NCBI GenBank assembly: GCA_002791275.1
Contig: PFWT01000009.1
Coordinates: 8,797-72,796 of the forward strand
DNA length: 64,000 bases
DNA from: Candidatus Uhrbacteria bacterium CG_4_9_14_3_um_filter_41_35
Lineage (GTDB): Bacteria > Patescibacteriota > Patescibacteriia > UBA9934
Direction: 5' to 3'
In this document: piece by piece, positions 4,838 to 43,610 of the stretch
Position numbering within the stretch: position 1 is the first letter of the stretch
Layout of the letters: every line of letters starts with the position of its first letter
The notes under the pieces: generated by a model
What the model saw: only the letters and a program-made list of their open reading frames with translations
Told to the model about the DNA's origin: nothing
The model's database searches: none
Made by a program: the position numbers and the translations under genes

Positions 4838-5014
4838 CGTCATTCTGAGGTGAACGTGGATCGTACCGAGGAATCTTATTGCCTCGTCATTCAGAGCCTA
4901 ACGTGAATCACGGCGAAGAATCTCAGTGTTGAATTACAGCGTAAACAAGTTTCTGTTTAGTAAAGAGCGAAGGAGATCCTTCAGCGTAATCTGGCGCTCG
5001 CTTCAGGATGACGG
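4838..5014. repeat. MITE-like composite repeat unit (locus A, copy 1: two head modules + body + tail)
   Basis: Begins CCGTCATTCTGAGGTGAACGTGGA and ends CTTCAGGATGACGG, an imperfect 14-bp terminal inverted repeat with 2 mismatches. Near-identical units recur at 23388-23560 and 36363-36950. Confidence 0.8.
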
Positions 5015-5079
5015 TATGGGTAAAGGGCGACTAATTAAAACAACGAAATAAAAAAAACACATCGCATTATCAAAACCAA

Positions 5080-5133
5080 ACCGTCATTCTGAGGTGAACG
5101 TGAACTACACCGAAGAATCTTAGTGCTGGATTA
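5080..5133. repeat. Partial head module of the same repeat family (locus A, copy 2), abutting the stop of the convergent ATP-grasp gene
   Basis: CCGTCATTCTGAGGTGAACGTGAACTACACCGAAGAATCT matches the head consensus. It is preceded by the conserved linker TATGGGTAAAGGGCGACTAATTAAAACAACG...AAAACCAAA. Confidence 0.7.
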
Positions 5134-6090
5134 CTTAGTCAGGTGTTCTAGTATTTTTTTCAAAACGTTCCTTGTTTTTCCGTAGGTTGGGTTGTAGTGA
5201 ATGAAATAATCTGGCTTGCCGTTAACTTCAAGTAGGTTGAATGTTCCCTTGGTTGGCTTGAGTGAAATATCTTCGCAAATAATGTCGATACCGATCAAAT
5301 TTTTACCAACAGCTTCGGTAGTTCTAACGCAGATTTTTTTTACATCTTCGTGTATTAAATCTGTAATATCTTTCGTTTCGCCACCTTCTGCGATACAGGA
5401 ATTCCCTTTAATATAAATAACCTCACCAGTTTTTGGAACGTTTGACAGCTTATAATTTTGCGAAGCAAGCATTTGTCTTAATAATTTGTCGAACTTTGTT
5501 TTACGTTTCGTTTCTTTTTGCTTGACCCTTATTAAGGTTTTAATATTTAAAATTCCATCACCAATAATATTCGGATGAATCATTTCAAGTCCAGCAATAA
5601 TTTCATTTTCGAGCACTAAGATTCTATATTCTTTACCACTAACCATTTCTTGCGCAACTAAACTGTCAAACCTTTTAATTTTTTGTTTTACAACCGCTAG
5701 CGCATCCTGGGGATTTTTGATATTAAGAACAATTCCAAGACTATTTGAACCTGTGGCGTCCTTAACAATGATCGGATAATGTAGTTTTTTTAGTTTCTTA
5801 AGAGCGGTGACTTTACTAAAACTACTTCTGTAAAAGCTCATTGTCTGTGGGGTTGGTAGATTTGATTTTTTTAAAAGTGTGTAGGTTAAATCCTTACATT
5901 TTGTTGTAGCAACGGTTGAGTAGGCGTTTTTTGGGATAGCAATATGGTACTCAAGAAACAGTTCTTGGTTATTGTACTCAACTAAATGACAGTCTCTTTC
6001 TTTTACAAAATTGGATATTTTTCCACCCGCTTTCGATATTACGCTCTGCATAATATCGAATTTACTATTCGTTGCTATTTTTTTAAACAT
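5131..6090 (-). CDS. ATP-grasp family protein (cyanophycin-synthetase/RimK-like fold), function unknown
   Basis: ATP-grasp-like motifs (KEYRILVLENEIIAG, GIDIICEDIS, LLEVNGKPD). Convergent with the RimK-like gene across the repeat locus. Confidence 0.5.
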   Translation of the reverse strand: MFKKIATNSKFDIMQSVISKAGGKISNFVKERDCHLVEYNNQELFLEYHIAIPKNAYSTVATTKCKDLTYTLLKKSNLPTPQTMSFYRSSFSKVTALKKLKKLHYPIIVKDATGSNSLGIVLNIKNPQDALAVVKQKIKRFDSLVAQEMVSGKEYRILVLENEIIAGLEMIHPNIIGDGILNIKTLIRVKQKETKRKTKFDKLLRQMLASQNYKLSNVPKTGEVIYIKGNSCIAEGGETKDITDLIHEDVKKICVRTTEAVGKNLIGIDIICEDISLKPTKGTFNLLEVNGKPDYFIHYNPTYGKTRNVLKKILEHLTK

Positions 6091-23698: not shown

Positions 23699-25837
23699 AT
23701 GCTCAACACTTTAAAAACTAACTTTGGCTACGATTCGTTTAGGCCTCTTCAGAAAGAGATTATTGACCACGTTGCCGGGAGAAATGACGCGCTAGTTTTG
23801 ATGCCAACAGGTGGTGGTAAGTCGCTCTGTTACCAACTGCCAGCGCTACTGTTTCCAGGTATAACTATCGTTGTTTCACCGCTCATTTCGCTTATGAAAG
23901 ATCAGGTGGATGCGCTAAAGGCAAACGGCATTTCAGCCGAGTTTTTAAACAGCACTCTGTCGCCAGAAGTTATCGAAGTTATTCAGGAAAGAGCCGTTCG
24001 CGGAGATATTAAACTCCTCTACATCGCCCCTGAAAGATTAGCGAACCCCTCATTTCGCCACTTTCTTTCTAGTCTGAACGTAAGCCTTATTGCTGTCGAC
24101 GAAGCGCACTGTATTTCGGAGTGGGGCCACGATTTTCGTCCAGATTATCGAAACTTCGGTGCTCTCCGCGAACTTTTTAAAGATGTGCCAGTTATTGCCC
24201 TAACCGCCACGGCAACTAAAAGAGTCAGGTTCGATATTTTAAATCAACTTGGTTTAAAAGAAGATCAAACATTTATTTCCAGCTTCAACCGGCCAAATTT
24301 ACAGTACGGAGTGGAGCCAAAGTACAAAACTTTTGATCAGCTCGTTACACTCTTAAATAAATATAAAGGTGAGCCAACGATTATATATTGTTTTTCAAGA
24401 AAACAAACTGAACAATTGGCCAGTGATCTCCGCAGTGCTGGTTATAGTGCCAAACCATATCACGCCGGGCTTTCGAAAGACGCTCGTCAAGAAACTCAGG
24501 AGCAGTTTATTACCGACGAAGTGCCAATTATCATCGCAACAATTGCCTTCGGTATGGGAATCGACAAACCAGATGTTCGTTTGGTGGTGCATTATGATTT
24601 ACCAAAAACGCTCGAATCCTACTATCAGGAAACAGGGCGTGCAGGCAGGGACGGTTTGCCGGCAGAGTGTGTTTTGTTTTACTCACTTGGAGATAAGCGC
24701 AAGCAGGATTACTTTATTAATATGATGGCAAACGCGGAGGAGCAGGAAAATGCTCGGCAGAAACTGGGGCAGGTAATTGAGTATTGCAACCTCGGTGTGT
24801 GTAGACGCAAGTATATTTTAGGTTATTTTGACGAATTGGTGAGTGAAAACAGCTGCGCAAACTGCGACAACTGCCTGGCTCCAGCTCATGATCACAATAT
24901 CACCGCACTCGCTCAAAGTATTATCCGCGCGGTTATTGAAACAGGTGAGCGTTTTGGCGCTGGCCATGTGATTAAGGTATTAAGAGGTTCAAAAACTAAA
25001 CGGCTCGAAGATTTTGGCCACAACGCACTTTCAACGTTTGGGCTTGAAAAGAAAACTTCAGAAGCAGAACTAAAACACGCTGTTGATCAACTTATTAAGC
25101 AGGGTATTGTCAAAAAAGACACTGGCGAATATCCAACTCTAAGTATCGACAGCGAAGGTCGGAATCTGCTGCAAAGCGGGGCACAGATTTATATTCAAAA
25201 GCCAAAGACGGAAATGCTTAAACTCAGCACCCCGCAGGTAGCGGATCTAGAATATAGCACTGAGCTATTTGAAAGCTTAAGAAACCTTAGGAAACAAGTT
25301 GCCGATCAAAAATCAGTTCCACCTTTTGTGATTTTTGGCAATAAATCGCTAATAGAAATGGCGCATTATTTGCCAAAAAATAGGGAAGAGTTTGCTAAAA
25401 TTTCAGGGGTAGGGAATCAAAAACTCGAGCAGTTTGCGGACATTTTTACAGAACTTATCCAGACTTATGCCATTCAAAACAACTTAGAAAGTAAGGCGAT
25501 CCCCACCCGAGCCAAAGCCGAACAAAAACGTTTGGTCAGCAGAGAAGGCTCTACCTACGCAGAAACTAAACGGTTAATTGATCAAAAACTAACACTTCAG
25601 GAAATCGCTAATGAGCGGAATATCAAAGAGGGGACAGTTATTAGCCATATTGAACAGCTGGTTATCTCGGACAGCGACCTAGATATAACCTACTTAAAAC
25701 CAGTAGAAAGTCGGCTAAAACCAATCTTGGCAGCTTTCTATAAATCTGGCCAAACAAGCTTATCACCAGTCCGCAGTCTGCTTGGCGATACATACTCATT
25801 CGACGAAATTCGCCTGGCTAGGTTATTTTTAGGGTAA
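23699..25837 (+). CDS. recQ: ATP-dependent DNA helicase RecQ
   Basis: Q-motif/Walker A LMPTGGGKSLCYQLPAL, DEAH box VDEAHCISEWGHDFRPDY, zinc-binding Cys cluster (CRRK...CANCDNC) and a C-terminal HRDC-like region. Confidence 0.9.
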   Translation: MLNTLKTNFGYDSFRPLQKEIIDHVAGRNDALVLMPTGGGKSLCYQLPALLFPGITIVVSPLISLMKDQVDALKANGISAEFLNSTLSPEVIEVIQERAVRGDIKLLYIAPERLANPSFRHFLSSLNVSLIAVDEAHCISEWGHDFRPDYRNFGALRELFKDVPVIALTATATKRVRFDILNQLGLKEDQTFISSFNRPNLQYGVEPKYKTFDQLVTLLNKYKGEPTIIYCFSRKQTEQLASDLRSAGYSAKPYHAGLSKDARQETQEQFITDEVPIIIATIAFGMGIDKPDVRLVVHYDLPKTLESYYQETGRAGRDGLPAECVLFYSLGDKRKQDYFINMMANAEEQENARQKLGQVIEYCNLGVCRRKYILGYFDELVSENSCANCDNCLAPAHDHNITALAQSIIRAVIETGERFGAGHVIKVLRGSKTKRLEDFGHNALSTFGLEKKTSEAELKHAVDQLIKQGIVKKDTGEYPTLSIDSEGRNLLQSGAQIYIQKPKTEMLKLSTPQVADLEYSTELFESLRNLRKQVADQKSVPPFVIFGNKSLIEMAHYLPKNREEFAKISGVGNQKLEQFADIFTELIQTYAIQNNLESKAIPTRAKAEQKRLVSREGSTYAETKRLIDQKLTLQEIANERNIKEGTVISHIEQLVISDSDLDITYLKPVESRLKPILAAFYKSGQTSLSPVRSLLGDTYSFDEIRLARLFLG

Positions 25838-28373: not shown

Positions 28374-29747
<1,374 letters not shown>

Positions 29748-30204
29748 GTGAAAAATATGAAGGGTTGGTCTAGTAACGGTATTTAAAATATTATCGTAAG
29801 ACCAACCTTTTTAATATTCTATTTATATTTAACATAATTACAGGGTTAATGTACAAATAGTGATAAACAAGTAGCACAACAAGAATACGCCAAATTTATT
29901 CTTGACGGAATTGGAAAATAGAGCCCATTAACAAATATAGAAGAAGGTATCGTCCTCGGTTTTCCTTAATATGTAAATTGGGTTCGTGAACTAAAAAATA
30001 ATAATTAAAAAACAAGGAAATACCAAGAGAACAAAGGCTGGTAGGGCGTCCACAACTTGAAGATTTATTTTCAAGTGAGATCAAACAAGACAACAAATTA
30101 AGAAATGATATGATTCGTATTGCTCATATTAGAGCTGGATATTCTCAAAAAAAATTGCGGAGCATTTGCGGAATATTTATTACATTTGGGTAAGTAAAAT
30201 AATA

Positions 30205-30483
30205 AATTAAAAACTCAACTTCGGGTGATCAACCTCGAAGTCGCCGAAGTGGTGGAAACCGAGGTTTTGGTCGAGGTGCTCGATCAGGCGGACCTGGTCG
30301 AAATAAGCCAAGCCACCGAAGAAGTGGTGGCGGTAGAAATGCCGACCGTTCAGGTGGAGCTCGAACTTCAGAGCGACCAGCCGGAGATCGAAGAACAAGC
30401 GGTGGAAATTCAAGTAGCCGACCAGCCGGGCAAAGTGCACCAAGATTTGGTGCTCGCAAGTCAGGAACTGGCGGAGCTCGAAA
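30205..30483 (+). pseudogene. 279-bp duplicated fragment of the DEAD-box helicase 3-prime coding end (RGG tail), no start codon; inverted repeat partner of 40042-40320
   Basis: Identical (1 mismatch) to the reverse complement of 40042-40320. The helicase reading frame is open but preceded by an in-frame TAA with no ATG. Confidence 0.8.
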
Positions 30484-30856
30484 AACTTCTACACCGAGCG
30501 GATGTTCTCGCCTACACCTCACCGGGAGGCATCGAGGTACTCGATGCCTCCCACCCATCTTGGGAGGATTTCGAGCGAAAAATAATAAAAAAAATCCTCA
30601 AACACAACATTATGCGCTTTTTTTGTTTCTTAAAAATTCAGTCATCTTTATCGTCAAAAAAATATCTTGGTATGTGTTACCGCGACTCATGACGTCGTAA
30701 CGGGCACCCAGGTATTTAATATGGAGTGTTCTTACGATACAAATTCATTATAAAAAAACACACCTCTCGACCTGACTCCATTTTTATTGACAAAATACCA
30801 TAGCAGATGTAAGTTAACGCGTTGTAATTTTACAACAGATCAAAAAAGAGGCTCAA

Positions 30857-32314
30857 ATGAACCCACGTACCGTTTTTTCAGTTGGCTCACCTCCGGAGTT
30901 TTTTGCTGACCTTGCCTTGAGAATTGCGAAAAATCGAGGCGTGAAACAAAAATCGTGTATCAATAGGGTTGAACTTAGCATCCTCATTCGTGATTTCTAT
31001 TCTGAACGTCATTTTGAAAAGGCGAAGGAAAAGGCTGGTCATGTGATTAGGTTTTTACTAGGAGAGGAAATCTTGATCACAGGCGAGAAGTCTGATGGGA
31101 AAAGTATGTTTTGGGTTGATTCTGATCAGCTGGTTAAGCTACGAAAGAAGATACTTGATCAGACTCAGACGTACACAGTTTCAACTCTTGATCAGAGTGA
31201 GCGAATCGCTAGACTTAGGCAGAGCGCTTCTGATCGAAAGCAGAGCGATCGTGAATATCCTCAGAAAACTCAGAATCAGGTAACGAAAGTGAAGCCACAA
31301 ATTTTAAATATCTCGGAAGTGGTGCCTCAACCCAGTCAGTCAGGAGACGCAATGACCGGGATTCCGTGTAAGTGGCGGTTGTACCTCACGCCAGTAGAAT
31401 TCGTCTGCTGGACCATTATCCAGCGGCAAGAGTATCCACCTGATTCGAATATGCCTGAGATTAGATTTTCTCTGGGCATGAACGGAAACATCACAGATCG
31501 GGAAGTGGCGGACTACAATATTTCCCTTGAAGATTTGAGTGTGTTTTTGTCTCGATGCGAGGCGGCAGGACTCATTCAGTTTTCTACGCGAAACATGGAG
31601 TTCGTTACTTATAAAGTTTTGGAAGATTTTGCTATTTTCGAACCCTTTGAAATTCCTGATCGTCCAATAGTTTCGTATAAGCACGATATTGAACAGATTG
31701 CCGATTGGATTGTGGCTGCGCACCGAGCGGGTCATTTTGATGAGGCAGGTGAGTTCGCGTGCAACGGCGATTATCTTAAGCCGATTCGTCTGTGGCTGAG
31801 GGAAAACTTCAAAACGGATAGCTATGAGCTGATTAGAATCATCCGGGATTACACAGAGAATAAACAGATAAATTCTCGATATATTGGTATTGTGAATACT
31901 GATATGGATGGGCGATTGCTGGTGGCTTGGCCACTTTTCGAATCAGTCTGGTTCAGAAAAAACCATCTAGCCGGTAAACTGACGAAAAACAAAACTCCGG
32001 CAGTTGTCGTTGGTAAGACGTCTGAAGTGGTAGAAGAGAAGCTACCTGAGCCTGTAAAGGTTAGTGGTATGGCTTTGGAAGTACTGAGTGAGGAAGTGGC
32101 TCTTTGCGAGGAGCAGGTTGAATCGCTAAAGAGGTGTCAGGAGGACCTGAAAGCACAGCTGGAGGCGATCGATCAAGAGATTGACGCTGCAGAAAGCTTG
32201 TTGTGTGAAGCCTCTAAGCGAAAAGAGGAAATGACCGGGCGCATTGCTGCACTCCAGCGTTTGCAGAGTCTCGAACAAGAGGCTGCTGCAATTCGTAAGC
32301 AGTTCAATCTGTAG
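30857..32314 (+). CDS. Hypothetical 485-aa protein with C-terminal coiled coil; compositionally GC-rich
   Basis: Long ORF with no recognisable catalytic motif. GC about 48%. C-terminal heptad repeats (EEQVESLKRCQEDLKAQLEAIDQEIDAAESL). Confidence 0.5.
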   Translation: MNPRTVFSVGSPPEFFADLALRIAKNRGVKQKSCINRVELSILIRDFYSERHFEKAKEKAGHVIRFLLGEEILITGEKSDGKSMFWVDSDQLVKLRKKILDQTQTYTVSTLDQSERIARLRQSASDRKQSDREYPQKTQNQVTKVKPQILNISEVVPQPSQSGDAMTGIPCKWRLYLTPVEFVCWTIIQRQEYPPDSNMPEIRFSLGMNGNITDREVADYNISLEDLSVFLSRCEAAGLIQFSTRNMEFVTYKVLEDFAIFEPFEIPDRPIVSYKHDIEQIADWIVAAHRAGHFDEAGEFACNGDYLKPIRLWLRENFKTDSYELIRIIRDYTENKQINSRYIGIVNTDMDGRLLVAWPLFESVWFRKNHLAGKLTKNKTPAVVVGKTSEVVEEKLPEPVKVSGMALEVLSEEVALCEEQVESLKRCQEDLKAQLEAIDQEIDAAESLLCEASKRKEEMTGRIAALQRLQSLEQEAAAIRKQFNL

Positions 32315-32443
32315 CCCCATAACCTAGAGTGTCAGCAATAGTTGGCACTCTTTTTATATTCAAAATATTGTAGTTAGTAAACGGTTGGCAGGAACTGTAG
32401 GGGGACGTACAATGAAAGGGCGTTTCACTAACCCCAATATTTT

Positions 32444-32989
32444 ATGAAGAAATCTTTACTTTTACTTTTGATTGTTGTACTAATTGGGGTGGCTGCTGGA
32501 ATTTGGTGGCTACCAAAAAATAAGGTGCAAAAGCCTTGGGCAACTAATTTTGCTGAATGTGTTGCGCTTGGAAATCCGTTAATGGAGTCATACCCACGGC
32601 AGTGCCGTAGTGGAGATATTACTTTTACTGAGGATATTGGTGATCAGCTAAATAAAATGGACTCAGTTATACTTGAAAACCCGCTACCAAACCAAACTGT
32701 TACAAGTCCGCTAGTTGTAAAAGGGCAAGCGCGAGGTAGCTGGTTTTTTGAAGGTAGTTTCCCAGTTATACTCGTGAATTGGGATGGCCTGATTATTGCG
32801 GAGGGTATTGCGACAGCTAAGACCGACTGGATGACCACAGATTTTGTTGAGTTTGAAGGAGAGCTAACGTTTGTAGTTGACGAAAATGTTTACAGTAACC
32901 GCGGGGCTTTGATATTGAAAAAAGATAATCCCTCAGGTCTACCAGAAAATGATGATGCGCTCGAGATTCCGGTAATACTGGTAGAATAA
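32444..32989 (+). CDS. Secreted/anchored protein with possible Gmad2-type Ig-like domain
   Basis: Signal/anchor MKKSLLLLLIVVLIGVAAGIWWL. C-terminal NPLPNQTVTSPLVVKGQARGSWFFEGSFPVILVNWDG pattern similar to Gmad2 domains. Confidence 0.35.
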   Translation: MKKSLLLLLIVVLIGVAAGIWWLPKNKVQKPWATNFAECVALGNPLMESYPRQCRSGDITFTEDIGDQLNKMDSVILENPLPNQTVTSPLVVKGQARGSWFFEGSFPVILVNWDGLIIAEGIATAKTDWMTTDFVEFEGELTFVVDENVYSNRGALILKKDNPSGLPENDDALEIPVILVE

Positions 32990-33024
32990 TAACAGACAAT
33001 TTATTATATTTTACTCACCAGGTT

Positions 33025-33288
33025 TTGAGTAAAAATTTAACATTACATAAACATATGTTTGGCAAGAAAGGGCCTAAAACAGAAACAGGAGCAGATCACG
33101 TAGATGTTGGAAAAGTTTTGCAAGAGATTGCAGGGGTTCGAGCGCAGTTATACGCAACAGGAGCTGTTGATAGTGAGCCTGAGGTACTTAATCAAATTGA
33201 GCGTGATGTGATTGCAGTCAAGATTTCACCTAGCGAAGCGCTTGCTAGAGTGAGAGGCGTTTTAGCTGGACGTCAGGATTATCATTAG
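33025..33288 (+). CDS. Small hypothetical protein
   Basis: 87-aa ORF between annotated genes. No homology recognised. Confidence 0.3.
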   Translation: MSKNLTLHKHMFGKKGPKTETGADHVDVGKVLQEIAGVRAQLYATGAVDSEPEVLNQIERDVIAVKISPSEALARVRGVLAGRQDYH

Positions 33289-33319
33289 GTAGCTTGTTTT
33301 AAAAGTTAAACTGGAAGTT

Positions 33320-34123
33320 ATGAAGAAAAAACTTAAAATAATCTCCTGGAACGTGAATGGAATTCGGGCGGTGATTCGGAAAGATGCTTTTTTGCCGTTT
33401 GTCCAGAAGTCTGAACCGGATATTCTTTGCGTGCAGGAAACTAAGGCAACAAAGGGGCAGGCGGAAATTGATTTACCCGAGTATGAGGAGATTTGGAATT
33501 CAGCTCAAAAAAAGGGTTACGCTGGCACGGCAATTTTCACGAAAATAAAACCGCTGTCAATAATCTATGACATCCAAGGGACGAAAAGTGAGCGGTTTGC
33601 AGATACTTTTGGAAACACGTTAACCGAAGGTCGGGTGATTACGGCAGAATTTGAAAAGTTTTATTTAGTTACGGTGTACACACCAAACTCCAAGTGTGAT
33701 CTCGAACGTTTAAAATATCGGCATGAAGTTTGGGACCCAGAATTTTTGTCATTCATTAAAAAACTTGAAGAAACTAAACCAGTTATTTTTTGCGGGGATT
33801 TAAATGCGGCCCATAAAGAAATTGATCTTGCTCGGCCAAAAGACAATAAAAAGAACGCTGGCTTTACTGCGCAAGAAAGAGAAGGAATAGACAAAATAGT
33901 TTCGGCAGGTTTTGTGGATACTTTTAGACACTTTTTTCCAGAAAAAACGGGTGTTTATTCTTGGTGGAGTAATTTTCGGCAAGCACGCGAGCGGAATGTC
34001 GGTTGGCGGATTGATTATTTCTTTGTTAGTGAAAAATTGAAAAAAAATTTAGTTAGTGCTGAAATTCACGATAAAATTATGGGTTCAGACCACTGCCCAG
34101 TTGAAATTGTGATTGAAATATAA
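33320..34123 (+). CDS. xth: Exodeoxyribonuclease III (AP endonuclease, Xth family)
   Basis: N-terminal ISWNVNGIRA, the catalytic DxN/H residues and C-terminal GSDHCPV. Confidence 0.9.
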   Translation: MKKKLKIISWNVNGIRAVIRKDAFLPFVQKSEPDILCVQETKATKGQAEIDLPEYEEIWNSAQKKGYAGTAIFTKIKPLSIIYDIQGTKSERFADTFGNTLTEGRVITAEFEKFYLVTVYTPNSKCDLERLKYRHEVWDPEFLSFIKKLEETKPVIFCGDLNAAHKEIDLARPKDNKKNAGFTAQEREGIDKIVSAGFVDTFRHFFPEKTGVYSWWSNFRQARERNVGWRIDYFFVSEKLKKNLVSAEIHDKIMGSDHCPVEIVIEI

Positions 34124-34186
34124 GACTGTTATTGACTAACCCTAGATGATTTTGGTACTATATTAAAAATTATTATTATCAATAAT

Positions 34187-34282
34187 ATGGCTAAAGGCTT
34201 AAACTCAAGAAAAAACGTAAAAAAACCTAAAAAAGACGCGGTAAAAAAAGGTGAGAAGAAACAGACAGGCGGAATTCTGTAA
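34187..34282 (+). CDS. Tiny lysine-rich ORF (31 aa, MAKGLNSRKNVKKPKKDAVKKGEKKQTGGIL)
   Basis: Not in the ORF track because of its length. Followed immediately by a strong terminator hairpin (aatgagtcc/ggactcatt). Confidence 0.3.
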   Translation: MAKGLNSRKNVKKPKKDAVKKGEKKQTGGIL

Positions 34283-34287
34283 AAACA

Positions 34288-34315
34288 AATGAGTCCACTC
34301 GGACTCATTTTTGTT
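34288..34315 (+). terminator. Rho-independent terminator
   Basis: 9-bp stem aatgagtcc/ggactcatt with actc loop, followed by TTTTGTT. Confidence 0.65.
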
Positions 34316-34393
34316 ACCTTGTGAATGTTGAGTTTGGGGTATACTATGTAAGTATTCTAATATTTAGTTGGTTTAAATTATCTAAACAATAAT

Positions 34394-34780
34394 ATGAATG
34401 GTTTTATTGTAAACATTGAAAAGGAGACTCTGGATAATTCAGACTACCGCCGAGTGCTTTACACCGCAAAAAATTCTCAGCTTGTACTTATGAATATTCA
34501 GCCAGGCGGAGAGATTGGTATGGAAGTGCATCATCTTGATCAGTTTTTACGAATCGAACAGGGTGAGGCAGAAGTGAGTTTAGATGGAGTTTTACATAAA
34601 ATCGGAACTGATTTTGCGGTGGTTGTACCAGCGGGTACGGCACATAACTTTGTAAACACGGGTGATATTGAACTGAAGCTTTACTCTATCTATTCACCAC
34701 CAGAACATAAGGACGGAATAGTTGAACATAACAAAGCGGACGAAATTGAAGAACATTTTGACGGTAAAACGACGGAGTAA
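34394..34780 (+). CDS. Cupin-domain protein
   Basis: Cupin_2 motifs G(x)5HxH (MEVHHLDQ) and AHNFVNTGD. Confidence 0.6.
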   Translation: MNGFIVNIEKETLDNSDYRRVLYTAKNSQLVLMNIQPGGEIGMEVHHLDQFLRIEQGEAEVSLDGVLHKIGTDFAVVVPAGTAHNFVNTGDIELKLYSIYSPPEHKDGIVEHNKADEIEEHFDGKTTE

Positions 34781-34792
34781 AATAAAAAGTAT

Positions 34793-35761
34793 ATGGCAAA
34801 ACAAGAATCAAAAAAATCAGATAGTCGAAGTTCGGCGAAGGATGTCTTCTCCTACCTGCTCATGGTGAGTATGCTGTATGTAGGGGTAGTAAGCTTCATC
34901 ACAATGCTGTGGCAATATACCAACGTACAGTTCCCCGATCCATTAGAGCTGTACTATAATGGTTCGCTTGAAATGATCAGGGGTGCGATCTCGGCTCTAG
35001 TGATTGTTTGGCCGGTGATGATGGGTATGTCTTGGCTGATCAATAAGGATATTAAAAATGATAAGCATAAAAAGAATTTGTGGATCCGTAAATGGTTACT
35101 TTACTTAACGCTGTTTATTTCTGCGCTTACGATCATTGTAGATCTAATCTCGGTTACGAATAATTTTTTAAGTGGTGAGTTAACGACTAGATTTGCGCTT
35201 AAGATTGTTATTGTTTTAGTGGTTGCGCTTGCAGTTTTTAGTTACTATATGTGGGAACTGCAACGAGATGTCCAAGAAAAGACGCTCATTCCAAAAATTT
35301 CGGCAACAGTTACTTCGGTTTTGATTGTTGCTTTTGTGATTATCGGTTTCTTTATTGTGGGCTCGCCAAAGTCTCAACGTGCGGTACGTATGGATAATCA
35401 GAGAGTTTCTGATTTGCAATCGATCCAATACCAAATCTTAAATCATTGGCAACAAAAAGAAATATTGCCGACAAATATTGAGGCGCTAAAGGATCCACTT
35501 TATGGAGTCGAGATGCAAAAGGATCCAATAACTGGCACGGCTTATGAATATGTAGTGACTGGTGAGTTAAGCTTCAAACTCTGTGCAACGTTCAGTGCAA
35601 GTAGTCAGATGCCAGGCGCGTCTTATAGTACAGCTCCAGTAATGATTGATTATAGTGGTTATGGTCGAGATATGATGAACGAAAGTTGGTTTCATGATAA
35701 TGGGTATACCTGTTTTGACAGAGCTATTGATCCAGAACTTTACAAACCAATTAAAAATTAA
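34793..35761 (+). CDS. Hypothetical membrane protein
   Basis: About 5 TM helices in the N-terminal two-thirds. Soluble C-terminal domain with no recognised family. Confidence 0.45.
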   Translation: MAKQESKKSDSRSSAKDVFSYLLMVSMLYVGVVSFITMLWQYTNVQFPDPLELYYNGSLEMIRGAISALVIVWPVMMGMSWLINKDIKNDKHKKNLWIRKWLLYLTLFISALTIIVDLISVTNNFLSGELTTRFALKIVIVLVVALAVFSYYMWELQRDVQEKTLIPKISATVTSVLIVAFVIIGFFIVGSPKSQRAVRMDNQRVSDLQSIQYQILNHWQQKEILPTNIEALKDPLYGVEMQKDPITGTAYEYVVTGELSFKLCATFSASSQMPGASYSTAPVMIDYSGYGRDMMNESWFHDNGYTCFDRAIDPELYKPIKN

Positions 35762-35768
35762 GAAAATA

Positions 35769-35798
35769 AAAAAGATCATCGCGCGATGATCTTTTTTT
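35769..35798. terminator. Bidirectional rho-independent terminator (perfect palindrome)
   Basis: agatcatcgc/gcgatgatct perfect 10-bp arms flanked by A- and T-runs, between convergent genes. Confidence 0.7.
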
Positions 35799-35803
35799 GA
35801 AAA

Positions 35804-36109
35804 TTATATTTTTTTATCGCGATTAATTTTTGCGTCTCGTGCTCTAGTTACCAAGAAGATAAAGACAATATACGCAACTGCGTAAATTAAGTATTCCGTG
35901 ATTTCAGCCCAATCTTTTCCCTCGAGCAACGTAAAACTTTCGCGCGCAACGTGCCAAAGTCTAGACACTGCAATGAATCCAAGAGTCCAAACGGTCGCTC
36001 GCATAGCGCTATAAGTTAAACCTTTGCGCATTGAGTATTCCGCTGCCACAGTTGCCGCGATTGCAAGAACGGCAGTTAGAACCGAGATTACGAAATAAAA
36101 TGAGAACAT
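35804..36109 (-). CDS. Small hypothetical membrane protein
   Basis: Three hydrophobic helices. Confidence 0.4.
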   Translation of the reverse strand: MFSFYFVISVLTAVLAIAATVAAEYSMRKGLTYSAMRATVWTLGFIAVSRLWHVARESFTLLEGKDWAEITEYLIYAVAYIVFIFLVTRARDAKINRDKKI

Positions 36110-36236
36110 ATATTTATTGAAATTGTTATAGCTTAAGTATACACCGATATTAAATTTATGCGAAGAAGATCAACCCCAGGTTAAGCCTGGGGTTATTATT
36201 TGATTTAATTTGATTTGCAAGTTTTTTATTTATTAT

Positions 36237-36287
36237 CTAAGACTGAGTTGCAGATGCGACTTAGTCGCATCTGCAACTCAGTCTTAG
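36237..36287. repeat. 24-bp perfect inverted repeat (palindrome) with 3-nt loop
   Basis: CTAAGACTGAGTTGCAGATGCGAC tta GTCGCATCTGCAACTCAGTCTTAG, with no T-run following. It lies between a 9-bp-stem hairpin (36170-36192) and the repeat cluster. Confidence 0.85.
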
Positions 36288-36362
36288 TTTGTGAGCATTT
36301 TATACTTACAAGGATTGTGTTTTATTTTTTCCAACATCGGACAAATTAGACAACGCACCAAA

Positions 36363-36950
36363 CTGTTATTCAGATCCTGGCGTGAACCACGGCGAAGAAT
36401 CTCATTACTGAATCACCAAATAAATGTCGGTTTAGTAAAGGGCGAAGGAGATCCTTCAGCGTGAATCGGCGCTCGCTTCAGGATGACGGTATGAGTGAGG
36501 GACAACTAATTATAACAACGACATAAAAAATTACATCGCATCATTAAAACCAAATCGTCATTCTGCGCCTAGTGTGAATCACGGCGAAGAATCTCATCAT
36601 CTCCTCATTCAGAGCCTAGCGTTTGGCACTTTGAAGAATCTAACCAAATCGTCATTCTGAGGTGAACGTGGATCACACCGAAGAATCTCATTACTGAATC
36701 ACCAAGCAAATGTCTGTTTAGTAAAGGGCGAAGGAGATCCTTCAGCGTAACCTGGCGCTCGCTTCAGGATGACGGTATGAGTGCGGGTCAAAATAATACA
36801 ATTACACCAAACAAACCAAACCGTCATTCTGAGGTGAACGTGGACCACACCGAAGAATCTCAGTGTTGAATTACAGCGTAAACAAGTCTCGATTCAGCAC
36901 AAACGAAGGAGATCCTTCAGTGTGAATCGTCGTCAGCTTCAGGATGACGG
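36363..36950. repeat. Cluster of three tandem MITE-like composite repeat units with conserved linkers (locus C)
   Basis: Units 36363-36489, 36555-36774 (three head modules) and 36821-36950. Each ends CTTCAGGATGACGG and is followed by a TATGAGTG...AAAACCAAA linker. Unit identity above 85%. Confidence 0.85.
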
Positions 36951-37045
36951 TTTGAGTGAAGGATTACAAATTTCTTTAAAAATTTAACAATCGACCAGTC
37001 AATTAAGTTGCTACAACTGTAAAAAAATGATAGATTCTGTCTATT

Positions 37046-38842
37046 ATGGCGAAGCCGTTACTTGAAGCTAAAAACATTTATAAAAAATACGGTCTCCAGC
37101 TTGTTCTTGACGACCTTTCTTTTCAGGTATCCGAGGGTTCAAAAATTGCTTTGATTGGCCGAAATGGAGCTGGGAAGTCAACACTTCTTAAGATTCTACT
37201 CGGAGATATTGAAATGGATAGGGGTAGTGTTAATATTTTTGAGTGGACGCGGGTTGGGGTTATTCATCAAAATGAGGTACTGCCAAACGATAGATCAACG
37301 CTCACTTATCTTGAAGAGAAAAGTGCGAAGCCATCTTGGGAGGTGAAAAAAATGGGTTCAAAATTTGGTCTGCACGAAGATCATATGTCAAAAGCGCCGG
37401 CTGAACTTTCAGGTGGTTACCAGATGCGAATTAAATTAGTGGTAATGTTTTTAGATGAGCCAAATTTATTATTTCTTGATGAGCCGGTTAACTATTTGGA
37501 TCTACAAACATTACTTCTACTCGAAGCTGTATTAGCTGACTATCGCGGCAGTTTTATCGTGGTAGCTCACGATATGACGTTTTTGCAAAACACTTGTGAT
37601 TCAGTTTTTGAAATTGAAAGAGGGGTGCTTACAACTTATAAGGGCAGAGTGCAGGAATATTTGGACTGGAAGGCGGAGCAAATGGAGTACGCTAAACGGA
37701 TGAATAAAAAACTTTCGAAAGAAATTCAACATAACCAAAAATTCGTGGATAGGTTTAGCGCCAAGGCAAGTTTGGCAAGTAGAGCTCAGAATAAAGCAAA
37801 ACACATTACTAAATTGCGCTCAAAAATAATGAAGATTAATGCAGATTTAGCAACTACGCGAATAAAGATTGCTTCACCACAGGTTCATTCTGGGCTGGCT
37901 ATGCGGACTCAGGATCTGGCAATTGGCTATGGCGAAAATGTTATCGCAAAAAATATTAGTTTTGATATTATGCGCGGTGAAAAAGTTGTGATCGCTGGAG
38001 AGAACGGGCGCGGTAAATCAACATTACTAAAAACTCTTATCCATAAAATTGAGCCAATTGAGGGTTCGGTGAAGTGGTGGAAACATGCGGATATTGGCTA
38101 TTACGACCAGATGACGAGCAGCTCACTTAATGATAGAGATACTGTTATGACTCATCTAACAAGTTGCGCACCAAGTACTACGCCAGCAGAACAGATCTTG
38201 ATGATGGCCGGAAATTTTTTGTTTAAAGGTGATGATCTAGATAAGCGGGTAACGGTTTTATCGGGAGGTGAAAGGGCTCGGCTAGCTTTAGCTGGCGTGT
38301 TGCTTCGGACTCACAATATGCTTATACTTGACGAGCCCACTAACCATATGGATGTGCAAACAGCTGAAGGTTTGGCGCTGGCGCTTAAGTCGTATACCGG
38401 AACAATTATTTTCGTTTCACATGCTCGAACTTTTGTTAGCGCATTGGTTGATCGGATTTTAGAAGTGAGAAATGGTTCTGTTCGCGAGTATAATGGTTCT
38501 TACGATGATTATGTTGAGGATTTAGCGGAGTTAATGGAATCTGAATCAATGCTCGATGATCAACAAGCGGTTAAAGACCGAACTAAACGTCTTGAAAATA
38601 ATGCAGAAAGGCTTGAAAGGAATACACGCTTGCGTGAGTTGAGCCGAAGTATTAAAAAAATAGATCTAAAAATATCTGAACTGGAAAAGGAAAAGAGTAA
38701 GATTTTGAAATTCTTTTTTGATAACCCAACTGACTACGCTCCTGAAAAAGCTCAGCGTTTAGCAGAGCTTGGTGATGAACTCGCTCATCTTGAACAAGAC
38801 TGGCTTAAATTTTCAGAAGATGTTGAAAGACTTAGAAAGTAG
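37046..38842 (+). CDS. ABC-F family ATPase with C-terminal coiled-coil extension
   Basis: Walker A GRNGAGKST / GENGRGKST, signatures LSGGYQMR / LSGGERAR, and about 100 aa of K/E-rich coiled coil at the C-terminus. Confidence 0.85.
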   Translation: MAKPLLEAKNIYKKYGLQLVLDDLSFQVSEGSKIALIGRNGAGKSTLLKILLGDIEMDRGSVNIFEWTRVGVIHQNEVLPNDRSTLTYLEEKSAKPSWEVKKMGSKFGLHEDHMSKAPAELSGGYQMRIKLVVMFLDEPNLLFLDEPVNYLDLQTLLLLEAVLADYRGSFIVVAHDMTFLQNTCDSVFEIERGVLTTYKGRVQEYLDWKAEQMEYAKRMNKKLSKEIQHNQKFVDRFSAKASLASRAQNKAKHITKLRSKIMKINADLATTRIKIASPQVHSGLAMRTQDLAIGYGENVIAKNISFDIMRGEKVVIAGENGRGKSTLLKTLIHKIEPIEGSVKWWKHADIGYYDQMTSSSLNDRDTVMTHLTSCAPSTTPAEQILMMAGNFLFKGDDLDKRVTVLSGGERARLALAGVLLRTHNMLILDEPTNHMDVQTAEGLALALKSYTGTIIFVSHARTFVSALVDRILEVRNGSVREYNGSYDDYVEDLAELMESESMLDDQQAVKDRTKRLENNAERLERNTRLRELSRSIKKIDLKISELEKEKSKILKFFFDNPTDYAPEKAQRLAELGDELAHLEQDWLKFSEDVERLRK

Positions 38843-38889
38843 ATACCTGAACTATTTTACTAAAGAAAAAATGAGGTATAATATTTATT

Positions 38890-39102
38890 ATGAATATAGA
38901 AAAAAATATTAATGTTATCCTTGGAATTTTTCTCGGTATTATTCTGGCCGTAGTTATCTGGAATCTGGTTTTTATTCACAAACTTACAGACGACGCTACT
39001 AGTCTGATTGAAGCAGAGCATCAAAGTTTATCGCCAGATAAGGGTGATGCAATTCTCGAAAGCACAAGTGTAGCAACGGAAGTTTTAATTTCTGTAGAAT
39101 AA
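38890..39102 (+). CDS. Small membrane protein (hypothetical)
   Basis: Single TM helix INVILGIFLGIILAVVIWNLVFI. Confidence 0.3.
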   Translation: MNIEKNINVILGIFLGIILAVVIWNLVFIHKLTDDATSLIEAEHQSLSPDKGDAILESTSVATEVLISVE

Positions 39103-39131
39103 AATAACTACACTTTGTAGTTATTTTTTTG
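39102..39131. terminator. Bidirectional rho-independent terminator
   Basis: ataactaca/tgtagttat stem with a T-run. Confidence 0.55.
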
Positions 39132-39132
39132 T

Positions 39133-39474
39133 TTAGCTAACAACTTTTATCCCTCTGAGACCAAAAACAATAAGAAAAAGAATGAAGATTTTTAAAAGAT
39201 AATAGCCATTTAAATCAAGAAAATGCTCGGTCATCGGTGTCATAGAACCAACGAGAAGGTGTACAGAGATCCCCAGGGGAAGTGCCCAGATTACCCAACT
39301 TATTTCCGGAATAATTACACCTGCACGTAGTGCTAGTTTTGAAAGCCAAGGTGCGAGTAGCCACATCGCCAAAAAGGTGAGCGCCAGATCGAAAATCGCA
39401 TAACTAAAAATTCGTGGCTGACGTAGAGTGGAGATGATATTCATATATAAAAATAATAGCACAAAACAAAACAA
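39133..39474 (-). CDS. Hypothetical membrane protein
   Basis: Three to four TM helices. Confidence 0.4.
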   Translation of the reverse strand: MFCFVLLFLYMNIISTLRQPRIFSYAIFDLALTFLAMWLLAPWLSKLALRAGVIIPEISWVIWALPLGISVHLLVGSMTPMTEHFLDLNGYYLLKIFILFLIVFGLRGIKVVS

Positions 39475-39496
39475 CCACCCTTGGGTGGTTGTTCAT
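39462..39496 (-). terminator. Rho-independent terminator of the Gly/Arg-rich zinc-ribbon gene
   Basis: aacaaccaccc/gggtggttgtt stem followed on the minus strand by TTTTGTTTTG. Confidence 0.6.
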
Positions 39497-39504
39497 ACTT
39501 CTGT

Positions 39505-39945
39505 TTAGATGTGCAGAGCTTTAATAATTCTGTCCATTTTTTCGTTTAACATTGCGATTTCTCGGCCAACATTTCCAGCGCCACCGCCACCAATTCGAGG
39601 AACTGATGCGTGATCTGGGTTTTGTGTTCGGTTAAATCTGCTTGTTCCTTTGTAGCCTTTTTCACCATTGCCGTCGGCTTCAAAACAAGCGCTACACTTT
39701 ACTGGCTTTGCACCAGTTGGTTTAAAAGGTACTCGACACTGAGCTCCACAGTCTGAACAAATGGCTTTGTGCATTTCTTTTTGAGCTCCGAAGTCGTAAG
39801 CACCACCTCGTCCGCCAGCTGATCGACCACCACTTGGGCGCCGTGCACCTGGTTTTGAACCTCCACTATTTCGACCACCGAACCCTGGTTTACCCCCTGA
39901 TTTTTTGTTGTTGAACATATTTTTACTTTGTAGACTGGTTATCAA
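39505..39945 (-). CDS. Gly/Arg-rich protein with central CxxC...CxxC zinc ribbon
   Basis: N-terminal GGKPGFGGRNSGGSKPGARRPSGGRSAGGRGG, ribbon CSDCGAQC...CSAC and GGGGAGNVGR. Lies immediately downstream of the DEAD-box helicase gene. Confidence 0.5.
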   Translation of the reverse strand: MITSLQSKNMFNNKKSGGKPGFGGRNSGGSKPGARRPSGGRSAGGRGGAYDFGAQKEMHKAICSDCGAQCRVPFKPTGAKPVKCSACFEADGNGEKGYKGTSRFNRTQNPDHASVPRIGGGGAGNVGREIAMLNEKMDRIIKALHI

Positions 39946-40010
39946 GTTGTTCAGTTGCTGAGCTGAATATTAGTTCAGCAACCTGCAACTTGAAAACTTA
40001 TTTATAATTA

Positions 40011-41456
40011 TTATCGGTCAGATGTACGTCTGCCGTACTTGTTTCGAGCTCCGCCAGTTCCTGACTTGCGAGCACCAAATCTTGGTGCACCTTGCCCGGC
40101 TGGTCGGCTACTTGAATTTCCACCGCTTGTTCTTCGATCTCCGGCTGGTCGCTCTGAAGTTCGAGCTCCACCTGAACGGTCGGCATTTCTACCGCCACCA
40201 CTTCTTCGGTGGCTTGGCTTATTTCGACCAGGTCCGCCTGATCGAGCACCTCGACCAAAACCTCGGTTTCCACCACTTCGGCGACTTCGAGGTTGATCAC
40301 CCGAAGTTGAGTTTTTAATTGGTTCAAGTGGCTGACCAGTGTAAGACCGAATTGGTAGTGTTATTTTAATCAGCTGTTGAATTTTGGCAATATCACCTTT
40401 TTGATCTGGGGCAGCAAATGAAATAGCTTTTCCATCTTTACCTGCTCGACCAGTTCGACCAATTCGGTGAACATAGTCATCTAACTGATCAGGTAGGTCG
40501 TAGTTAATTACGAGCTCAATATTATCAACGTCGATTCCTCGGGCTGCAATATCGGTAGCAACTAGAACTCTGTAGGTTCCGTTTGAGAAACCTTTAAGCG
40601 CGTGCTGTCTTTGCGCCTGTGATCGATTTGAGTGAATTTCGTCGGACTTAACCCCCATTTTTTTAAGAGTTTGCGCAATCTTTGCAGCTCCGTGCTTAGT
40701 TCGACTGAAAATTAGAACGGAACCAGTGTACTCCTTTAGAAGCCTTACAAGCAGTCCCATCTTTTCAGATTTTGGTGTAATGAAAACCTCTTGATCGATC
40801 TTATCTGCTGTTTGACCTGGGCGAGCGACTTCAACTCGAAGTGGCTTTTTCATATATTGTGCAGCAATGTTTGCAATTTCGGGTGGCATTGTTGCTGAAA
40901 ACAGCATTGTCTGGCGATCGTCCGGTACTGTTTCCAAGATTTGCTTTAGCTGTGGGGCAAATCCCATGTCCAGCATTCTGTCTGCCTCATCGAGAACTAG
41001 AATACCAACCTTTGTTAAGTTGGCATTTTTATGCTCAACGTGATCAATAAGTCGACCTGGTGTAGCCACAATAATGTGCGGTTTATTCTTTAACTGCTTA
41101 ATTTGTGGTCTTGGGTTAGTTCCACCAATCACAATCGCTGTCCGTAGTCCTACTGGACCTGCAACTTTTCGGAGAGTTTCCTCAACCTGGATAGCAAGTT
41201 CGCGAGTAGGGAGTAAGATTAGCCCAATTTTGTCTGATGAGGCTACTTTTTGTAATGTTGGGATGGCAAACGCTAATGTTTTTCCTGACCCGGTCTGTGC
41301 GATTCCGACAACGTCTTCACCTGAGGTGGCAATTGGAATTGCCTTGTACTGAATTGGCGTTGGGTGCACAAAACCGAGCTGAGTTAGTCGCTCGAGTAGT
41401 TCTGGCGCAATGCCTAGATTATTAAAATCCTGTTCCTTATATTCTTCTCTATTCAT
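40011..41456 (-). CDS. DEAD-box ATP-dependent RNA helicase with C-terminal RGG-rich tail
   Basis: Q motif, AQTGSGKT, DEAD (VLDEADRM), SAT, HRIGRTGRAG and about 100 aa of RGG/RSGG tail. Confidence 0.9.
   Translation of the reverse strand: MNREEYKEQDFNNLGIAPELLERLTQLGFVHPTPIQYKAIPIATSGEDVVGIAQTGSGKTLAFAIPTLQKVASSDKIGLILLPTRELAIQVEETLRKVAGPVGLRTAIVIGGTNPRPQIKQLKNKPHIIVATPGRLIDHVEHKNANLTKVGILVLDEADRMLDMGFAPQLKQILETVPDDRQTMLFSATMPPEIANIAAQYMKKPLRVEVARPGQTADKIDQEVFITPKSEKMGLLVRLLKEYTGSVLIFSRTKHGAAKIAQTLKKMGVKSDEIHSNRSQAQRQHALKGFSNGTYRVLVATDIAARGIDVDNIELVINYDLPDQLDDYVHRIGRTGRAGKDGKAISFAAPDQKGDIAKIQQLIKITLPIRSYTGQPLEPIKNSTSGDQPRSRRSGGNRGFGRGARSGGPGRNKPSHRRSGGGRNADRSGGARTSERPAGDRRTSGGNSSSRPAGQGAPRFGARKSGTGGARNKYGRRTSDR
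40042..40320 (-). repeat. Inverted-repeat partner (within the helicase CDS) of the 30205-30483 fragment
   Basis: 279 bp, with 1 mismatch to the reverse complement of 30205-30483. Confidence 0.85.
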
Positions 41457-42521: not shown

Positions 42522-43610
42522 ATGACAATTTACAAAACTCTTAGAAATTTTGCAGAAAAATACGAACGCGTTCTGTTGCCAGGTACGCTAATTTTAGGTT
42601 TAATTGTCGATGTTTTTACATTCAGATCTATTAGTATTAAAAGCGCCTTCATTTTGCTGGCACTACACGCAATTTCGGTTGGCTTCATGATTGCTTTTAT
42701 AAATATTTTTGATCTGAAGCCAAGAGAAAACCGTAAAGGTATTCTAAGATATTTAAGAATAGCTGGTCCGTTTTTAATACAGTTCGATTTTGGGGCGCTA
42801 CTTAGTGCAACTCTGATATTTTATTGGTTTAGTGGCTCAATCGCGGTTAGTTGGCCATTTATTATTATCGTTGCTGTTTTAATGGCATCAAACGATGTGT
42901 TGCGCCATCATTTTACAAAACCAGCTGTTCAATTAAGTGTATATTTCTTTGTTCTATTTTCTTTATTCTCAATCACTTTACCTTTCATTTTTAACTCAAT
43001 CTCCGTCTGGTTATTTATTTTAAGTTCAGTTTTAAGTTCGTTATTTATAGCGATTTACGCACAAGTGCTGGCAAAATACGTGCCTGAGGTTAAAAGCCGT
43101 TTACCGGTTATTACTTCGGTTATAATGACTATAATCTTAGTATTGAACACCTTTTATTTCTTGAATTTTATCCCACCAGTTCCACTTTCTTTAAGAGAAG
43201 TAGGGGTTTACCATAATGTGGAACGAACTGGTGGCGATTACAAAGTGCTGACTGAAAAAGAGTCGTTTATAAACAAAATTTTACCCGGGCGAGTTATTTT
43301 AATTATGCCAGGAGAAAGAGTATATTTTTACACCTCAATATTTGCGCCAGCAGATTTAAATACGGAGATAACCCACAATTGGCAATTTTATAATACTGAA
43401 ACGAAAAAATGGGAGGATAGGAATCAACTTTCTTTTACAGTCACTGGCGGTCGACAAGAGGGTTATCGCGGGTTTTCTTACAAAACAAATACAGAAGCTG
43501 GTGCTTGGCGAGTGAGTGTGGAAACAAAACGTGGGCAAGTACTTGGACAAATCAATTTTAAAATCGGTTACGTGAATGATTTGCCAGAATTAATTACTGA
43601 ATTTAAATAG
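42522..43610 (+). CDS. Hypothetical polytopic membrane protein with soluble C-terminal domain
   Basis: About 7 TM helices followed by a roughly 150-aa domain. Confidence 0.4.
   Translation: MTIYKTLRNFAEKYERVLLPGTLILGLIVDVFTFRSISIKSAFILLALHAISVGFMIAFINIFDLKPRENRKGILRYLRIAGPFLIQFDFGALLSATLIFYWFSGSIAVSWPFIIIVAVLMASNDVLRHHFTKPAVQLSVYFFVLFSLFSITLPFIFNSISVWLFILSSVLSSLFIAIYAQVLAKYVPEVKSRLPVITSVIMTIILVLNTFYFLNFIPPVPLSLREVGVYHNVERTGGDYKVLTEKESFINKILPGRVILIMPGERVYFYTSIFAPADLNTEITHNWQFYNTETKKWEDRNQLSFTVTGGRQEGYRGFSYKTNTEAGAWRVSVETKRGQVLGQINFKIGYVNDLPELITEFK

Follow-up and report, generated by a model that had tools for sequence, protein, structure and literature searches.

A young inverted duplication of a DEAD-box helicase gene end and the probable inversion of the segment it bounds in a Candidatus Uhrbacteria population

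We analysed a 64,000-nt stretch of DNA (hereafter the window) from Candidatus Uhrbacteria bacterium CG_4_9_14_3_um_filter_41_35 (GenBank assembly GCA_002791275.1, contig PFWT01000009.1, positions 8,797 to 72,796), a bacterium of the Candidate Phyla Radiation (CPR) whose source population lives in Crystal Geyser groundwater. The 3' coding end of a DEAD-box RNA helicase gene is present twice in the window, as the two arms of a near-perfect inverted repeat that encloses a segment of 9558 bp. Junctions corresponding to both orientations of this segment are found in public assemblies, and the only base that tells the arms apart is found in exchanged linkage in some of them. Based on these observations, we favour the reading, to which we would give a probability of roughly 0.6, that a young inverted partial duplication drives recurrent inversion of the segment by RecA-type homologous recombination, and that the outcome is a neutral structural polymorphism and not a programmed switching of the helicase C-terminus.

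Two copies of a helicase gene end form an inverted repeat

A repeat search against the window itself identified the two arms (30205-30483 and 40042-40320) as an inverted repeat, 279 nt long in each arm and with a spacing of 9558 nt. When compared base by base, they differ at a single site, repeat position 230, which is A at 30434 and, read in the helicase sense, G at 40091, giving an identity of 99.6%. The first-pass annotation of this DNA, made from the sequence alone, had described just such a 279-bp inverted repeat with one mismatch. Both ends of the repeat are sharp, and the similarity stops at either arm end with no residue beyond. On sequence grounds, a 279-nt match at this identity cannot be chance. 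The features on which the argument rests are as follows.

30205..30483, + strand: left arm, an orphan duplicate of the 3' coding end of the helicase gene, whose Arg-Gly-Gly (RGG) sense is on the + strand
40042..40320, - strand: right arm, inside the helicase coding sequence (CDS), encoding the Arg/Gly-rich tail; the original copy
30434, unstranded: arm-distinguishing base, A here and G at 40091; position 230 of the repeat and 49 nt from the inner arm end
30484..40041, unstranded: invertible segment, 9558 bp, so called on the basis of junction types in public contigs
40011..41456, - strand: DEAD-box RNA helicase (RhlE-like), 481 aa; Pfam DEAD 4.5e-54 and Helicase_C 1.2e-31; PJA46493.1

The helicase of the window is identical to PJA46493.1, the protein deposited for the same bacterium, and its DEAD and Helicase_C domains are followed by an Arg/Gly-rich tail, which is the domain plan of an RhlE-like helicase with a basic C-terminal tail. 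The 279 copied coding bases correspond to the 3' end of this gene minus its final 10 codons. The location of the right arm within the CDS (40011-41456), where it encodes the RGG tail, agrees with the initial description, as does the orphan nature of the left arm, which is in the helicase frame, has no start codon and is directly preceded by in-frame stops (two TAA codons, 30200-30205). The segment is therefore flanked by long, near-identical inverted repeats, one of the features by which a segment liable to inversion by homologous recombination of the non-allelic type is recognised.

Junctions of both orientations in public assemblies

Public contigs carrying exact copies of the neighbouring proteins were fetched and their junctions classified by BLAST, using four flanks: A (outer left, on the side of the glutamate dehydrogenase, GDH), X (inner left, on the side of a 485-aa protein), Y' (inner right, on the side of a zinc-ribbon protein) and H' (outer right, helicase). 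Fourteen contigs, from 14 different assemblies, cross a whole arm, and these divide into seven with window junctions and seven with flipped ones. The assemblies are from the Joint Genome Institute (JGI) as well as from ENA, the latter with contigs named k141_/k127_ and NODE_, and represent several assemblers. One of the contigs, L044, derives from run SRR1534154 of PRJNA229517. By junction type, the contigs are as follows.

Window orientation, A-arm-X: L002, L003, L017, L040
Window orientation, H'-arm-Y': L001, L046, L048
Flipped orientation, A-arm-Y': L004, L018, L027, L044, L045
Flipped orientation, H'-arm-X: L028, L041

The most informative of these is L004 (10.6 kb), which holds the whole interior, an arm, flank A and the end of the GDH gene in one contig. 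Most other contigs break inside an arm, and several of 9.2-10 kb span precisely the interior plus part of an arm on either side. A scan of JGI metagenomes for whole arms returned two contigs only, both of them flipped. Identity to the window is 99.9% or more in every arm-crossing contig, and no substitution is common to one orientation; these contigs represent an essentially clonal population, in which orientation does not mark a strain. The suggestion of the first-pass annotation that recombination between the arms would invert the segment is thus joined by seven flipped contigs that include both reciprocal junctions, with the caveat that short-read assemblers can mis-thread a repeat this long. 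We consider it likely that both orientations truly coexist.

Exchange of the distinguishing base between the arms

The arm-distinguishing base lies 49 nt from the inner arm end, and therefore its linkage to X or to Y' is fixed within single k-mers or reads. In the window and most contigs, base A is linked to X and base G to Y'. The reversed linkage is observed in contigs from four samples, with A beside Y' in three (L018, L044 and L008) and G beside X in one (L010). These molecules point to a real exchange between the arms, as mis-threading of a window-type genome cannot make them, and the two combinations are the reciprocal products expected of a crossover in the last 49 nt of the arm. The linkage patterns thus make recombinational exchange between the arms highly probable.

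The flipped contigs provide a further, if small, indication of where exchanges may fall. The marker stays with the interior in five of them and with flank A in the other two, where the division of the arm by the marker (229:49) predicts 5.7 and 1.3, a comparison that involves one marker and a tiny sample. For a sample of this size, the numbers fit crossovers that fall anywhere along the arm, with no fixed core.

Fixed orientation with mis-threaded contigs as an alternative

The alternative that survives best, though we regard it as clearly less probable than recurrent inversion, is that the window orientation is fixed, that the arms exchange sequence by gene conversion only, and that the flipped contigs were mis-threaded at a repeat too long for short reads to bridge. 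Several observations weigh in its favour and against the coexistence of two orientations. The 229-279 nt shared between the arms exceeds the k-mers of the assemblers (k = 127-141) and probably the read length too, and a double-stranded assembly graph offers no ground for preferring one orientation as a path over the other when no read pairs bridge the arm. Random threading would also give a 7:7 division, most contigs break inside the arms, and five of the seven flipped contigs, those in which the marker stays with the interior, show exactly the pattern expected from mis-threading a window-type genome. Some of the spanning contigs also inspire limited trust, several being short or at 1-2x coverage (for example, L045 at 1.3x), and the first 361 nt of L028 (1-361) are foreign GC-rich DNA joined at window position 33170, a chimeric end that tempers trust in that assembly. 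The two flipped junctions never come from one sample, and the two large contigs, of 275 and 325 kb, in which the orphan open reading frame (ORF) and the 481-aa helicase occur are window-oriented.

Fixed orientation has to accommodate, however, seven flipped contigs that come from seven assemblies made by at least three pipelines and that display both reciprocal junctions, including the 10.6-kb L004, which continues beyond the arm across the outer flank and into GDH. It also has to accommodate the molecules with A beside the zinc-ribbon side and with G beside the 485-aa side, which are real at k-mer scale and are the expected products of crossover. Gene conversion and crossover are outcomes of one recombination process.

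Origin and age of the duplicated copy

A sister strain, that of run SRR22388162, is represented by the Logan contig L042, whose helicase (P0122) is 95% identical in protein sequence to that of the window. In this contig, the helicase continues into the arm, the downstream spacer and the zinc-ribbon gene as in the window, and the protein ends in the same ten residues, NKYGRRTSDR. The right arm is thus ancestral, because L042 keeps the same continuity and the same C-terminus. The arm region of L042 is 82% identical to the window and its flanks are 87-91% identical. Given that the two arms are 99.6% alike and only 82% identical to the sister strain, the copy is either younger than the split from that strain or is being homogenised. 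The earlier suggestion of a very recent duplication or ongoing gene conversion is in line with these values and with the swapping of the distinguishing base in four samples.

Logan contigs are assembled from short k-mers, and L042 passes through the helicase end unbroken, which suggests that a second near-identical copy is lacking in the sister strain. The relatives found among GTDB species representatives with the helicase as query, at 58-76% protein identity, have neither the inverted repeat nor a shared gene order, and in one of them (in L029) the helicase ends in a short basic tail. A second copy was not seen in L042, on its helicase side, or in three relatives. Comparison with related genomes, which had been put forward at the outset as a check on orientation, therefore shows a single copy in the sister contig and relatives, while contigs of the same population appear in both orientations. 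As for the remainder of the segment, a sister-strain orthologue of its Gmad2 protein was not found, the matches being at most 74% identical. The copy itself may stem from a first inversion with staggered breaks, an event that would have left the segment flipped and with a copy of the arm at each end.

The altered helicase end and the case for a switch

Beyond the left arm, the helicase frame remains open for 71 codons, up to a TAA at 30698-30700. By prediction, inversion replaces the last 10 residues of the helicase (NKYGRRTSDR) with 72 others, to give a 543-aa protein. The exact predicted fusion is encoded in two public contigs (L028 and L041); frame analysis and these contigs together uphold the replacement anticipated in the first-pass annotation.

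30484..30700, + strand: read-through that becomes the helicase tail when the segment is flipped, 72 residues; from frame analysis, with the fusion seen in public contigs

The alternative tail bears no relation to the 10 residues whose place it takes. A phmmer search of 1.84 billion representative proteins returned two matches to it, both junk translations of tandem repeats, and no real homologue, so that the conservation of the extension in relatives for which the first-pass annotation had allowed is not seen. No relative of the helicase aligned over the tail, and Pfam and PHROGs contain nothing that matches it. Its coding region crosses a strong hairpin and then an A/T-rich spacer, and the DNA looks like non-coding sequence. 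Two statistics weigh the other way. The helicase frame is open over the 217 nt in 4% of dinucleotide shuffles (P ~0.04), and two frames, that of the helicase and the +1 frame, are both free of stops for ~70 codons past the left arm (30485-30700; P ~0.002, also from dinucleotide shuffles). This excess of open frames leaves a little room for a coding role.

These observations bear on the idea, also raised by the first-pass annotation, that the locus is a device for C-terminal switching or phase variation. In its general form, the idea is that the flip is selected as it switches helicase C-termini or re-wires the expression of interior genes, as a form of bet-hedging. The geometry is compatible with it: the criteria described for gene-altering programmed inversions are inverted repeats, at least one arm in a CDS and a flanked region of at most 15 kb (PMC9881135), and at this locus the right arm falls within the coding sequence of the helicase, with 9558 nt enclosed between the arms. 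The two orientations are seen about equally often in a population that is clonal in other respects, the open frames noted above could be taken as a sign of coding, and some programmed inversions have no recombinase gene nearby (PMC9881135). However, no site-specific recombinase was found in the segment, in its flanks or among the ORFs scanned across the 64-kb window, and the precomputed Pfam labels of the contigs agree. Within the material scanned, there is also no homologous alternative segment, the replacement tail being without a homologue and running through a very stable hairpin, and no recurrence of the arrangement, which is absent from the sister contig and the relatives. Crossovers are apparently not confined to one core. 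Moreover, the 485-aa gene has a candidate promoter inside the segment (a TTGACA -35 box at 30788, as read from the sequence) that moves along with it, and so a flip probably does not separate this gene from its promoter. We therefore consider a selected phase-variation device improbable, and of the earlier description it is the term rearrangement hotspot that is accurate. The same low standing applies to a minimal, recombinase-free version of the idea, in which bet-hedging would involve two population states with helicases of 481 and 543 residues and with different gene sets behind the helicase and GDH promoters.

Lastly, that the repeat itself is an assembly artefact, produced by collapsed contig ends or a fold-back join of the kind metagenome-assembled genomes (MAGs) can hold, was mentioned by the first-pass annotation as a way in which its reading could fail, and is hardly credible given that the left arm with both its flanks was assembled independently in L002, L003, L017 and L040, and the right arm in L001, L046 and L048, from different samples and by different assemblers.

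Proposed history of the locus

Under the favoured reading of recurrent inversion without programming, the 279 coding bases at the 3' end of the helicase gene would have been copied recently, in reverse orientation, to a place 9.6 kb away, where the copy would have landed beside the remnant of a decayed gene and an orphan gene specific to this lineage. The near-identical arms would then serve as substrates of general RecA-type homologous recombination, with gene conversion perhaps keeping them alike and crossovers flipping the 9558-bp segment back and forth, such that both orientations would come to be present in an otherwise clonal population. Each flip would exchange the last 10 codons of the helicase for 72 unconserved ones and would swap the sets of interior genes that lie downstream of the helicase and of GDH. 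Most likely, these effects are tolerated by-products and not a selected switch.

If read-level data confirm the inversion, the locus would be a clean natural case of recurrent, recombinase-free inversion in an otherwise clonal population of an uncultivated CPR bacterium, visible in public data. It would illustrate how a short partial gene duplication can create both a structural polymorphism and a chimeric gene end. The locus also explains why assemblies of this organism break here, and it carries two warnings for annotation, namely that the orientation of the segment in any single MAG is arbitrary and that the gene called on the orphan arm, described below, is probably a frame artefact.

Surroundings of the left arm and gene content of the segment

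The features adjoining the left arm and the genes at the ends of the segment are as follows.

28410..29747, + strand: GDH gene, left outer neighbour, from the domain scan
30008..30208, + strand: decayed gene tail with one frameshift, outer left flank; HTH-like, with HTH_23 at E = 0.065 only
30225..30692, + strand: annotated 155-aa 'hypothetical protein' PJA46482.1, in the +1 frame of the repeat plus spacer, not the helicase frame
30524..30552, unstranded: hairpin with a perfect 13-bp stem, just inside the left arm; unique in the window
30857..32314, + strand: 485-aa protein with a coiled-coil-like region at its C-terminus, product of the first gene of the segment
39505..39945, - strand: zinc-ribbon (zf_Tbcl_2) protein, product of the last gene of the segment; downstream of the helicase as the window stands, and of GDH after a flip

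The decayed gene tail stops exactly at the left arm. We considered whether the outer left flank is the remnant of an IS200-type transposase, an idea for which there is only the weak HTH match (E = 0.065) and which remains a guess. The ORF PJA46482.1 is an acidic, Glu/Val-rich read-out of RGG-coding DNA; it has no Pfam or PHROG match and its occurrence is confined to this species, and it is probably, judging from its frame and composition, an artefact and not a gene. The first 117 nt past the left arm (30484-30600) fold at -40.3 kcal/mol (z = -4.7), with a second stem beside the hairpin, and have no match in Rfam. Across the window, Rfam at gathering thresholds detects one tRNA only, and a permissive scan of 29700-30900 gave matches at chance level.

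Inside the segment, domain scans identify the 485-aa hypothetical protein, a Gmad2 Ig-like protein, an Exo_endo_phos (xth-like) nuclease, a cupin, a DUF5671 membrane protein, an ABC-F gene and the zf_Tbcl_2 zinc-ribbon gene. Together with the repeat search, they bear out the gene list and the repeat cluster (36351-36972) of the first-pass annotation. Pfam and PHROGs yielded nothing for the small interior ORFs. A search of 5.8 billion proteins with the 485-aa protein as query found only the protein itself, no homologue was found in IMG/VR, and the protein belongs to no Pfam or PHROG family. Its gene looks like a true orphan, and the left end of the segment, by the same searches, looks lineage-specific.

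The cluster at 36351-36972 is made up of families of short direct repeats, with units of 66-173 nt that are 71-88% alike, and related copies (78-83% identity) are located 31 kb upstream, at 4884-5134. By their look, these are elements of the miniature inverted-repeat transposable element (MITE) or repetitive extragenic palindromic (REP) kind, and several public contigs terminate in the cluster.

We also considered the segment as a mobile element or integrated island and rejected this. The arms are inverted and not direct, the interior genes are ordinary, and the order of helicase, zinc-ribbon and ABC-F genes is the same in the sister strain. The scan of IMG/VR with the 485-aa protein, which found nothing, gave no sign of a viral origin.

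To the left of the segment lie genes for RecQ and tRNA-Asn, small ORFs and the GDH gene, and to its right the helicase, TruB, a DUF2914 protein and glycosylation genes. Some of the public contigs differ from the window in these neighbours. In L026, 22 bp are missing from the DUF2914 gene (43118-43139), which leaves ORFs of 200 and 130 aa; this is a deletion variant in the population. In L014 and L016, one-base length differences at ~25563-25576 in the RecQ gene coincide with a RecQ call of 625 aa that has lost its HTH_40 end, and these may be real variation or sequencing error.

Comparison with known inversion systems

Inversions between rRNA operons or between copies of insertion sequences occur by homologous recombination. 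In Staphylococcus aureus, half of the chromosome inverts reversibly between copies of hsdMS (PMC6778178). The locus described here resembles inversions of the hsdMS type in its long, near-identical inverted repeats, in that no dedicated recombinase was found, in its apparent reversibility with subpopulations of either orientation, and in its signs of exchange between the repeats. It differs in its repeat, which measures only 279 bp and consists of part of a housekeeping helicase gene instead of a mobile element or duplicated gene. The segment is also small (9.6 kb), the host is an uncultivated CPR bacterium, and the evidence is drawn from metagenome assemblies.

The second group for comparison is that of the gene-altering programmed inversions and shufflons described by Milman et al. 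2023 (PMC9881135), along with which we note the name 'partial intergenic invertons' used by Chanin et al. (10.1101/2023.03.11.532203). With shufflon-type inversions, the present case shares one arm in a CDS, a region of less than 15 kb, the alteration of a C-terminal coding end and an apparent variation of orientation within the species. Unlike in those systems, a recombinase was not found nearby, the partner of the gene end is an unconserved spacer and not a homologous alternative domain, and the target is no specificity-determining gene. The arrangement is likewise unconserved, and the arms are long, with a crossover position that is seemingly free.

A third parallel is flip-flop isomerisation. 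The inverted repeat of plastid genomes supports such flip-flopping of the segment that it bounds. In methylotrophic yeasts, mating-type switching takes place by inversion (PMC11764356, PMC8496258). As in these systems, a segment between inverted repeats would here be flipped by homologous recombination with both isomers coexisting; their repeats are, however, kilobases long and old, and in the yeasts it is the orientation that determines the genes to be expressed, whereas the repeat of the helicase locus is young and has no evident regulatory consequence. Thus, the mechanism is of a known kind, and the locus is a new instance of it in a CPR bacterium.

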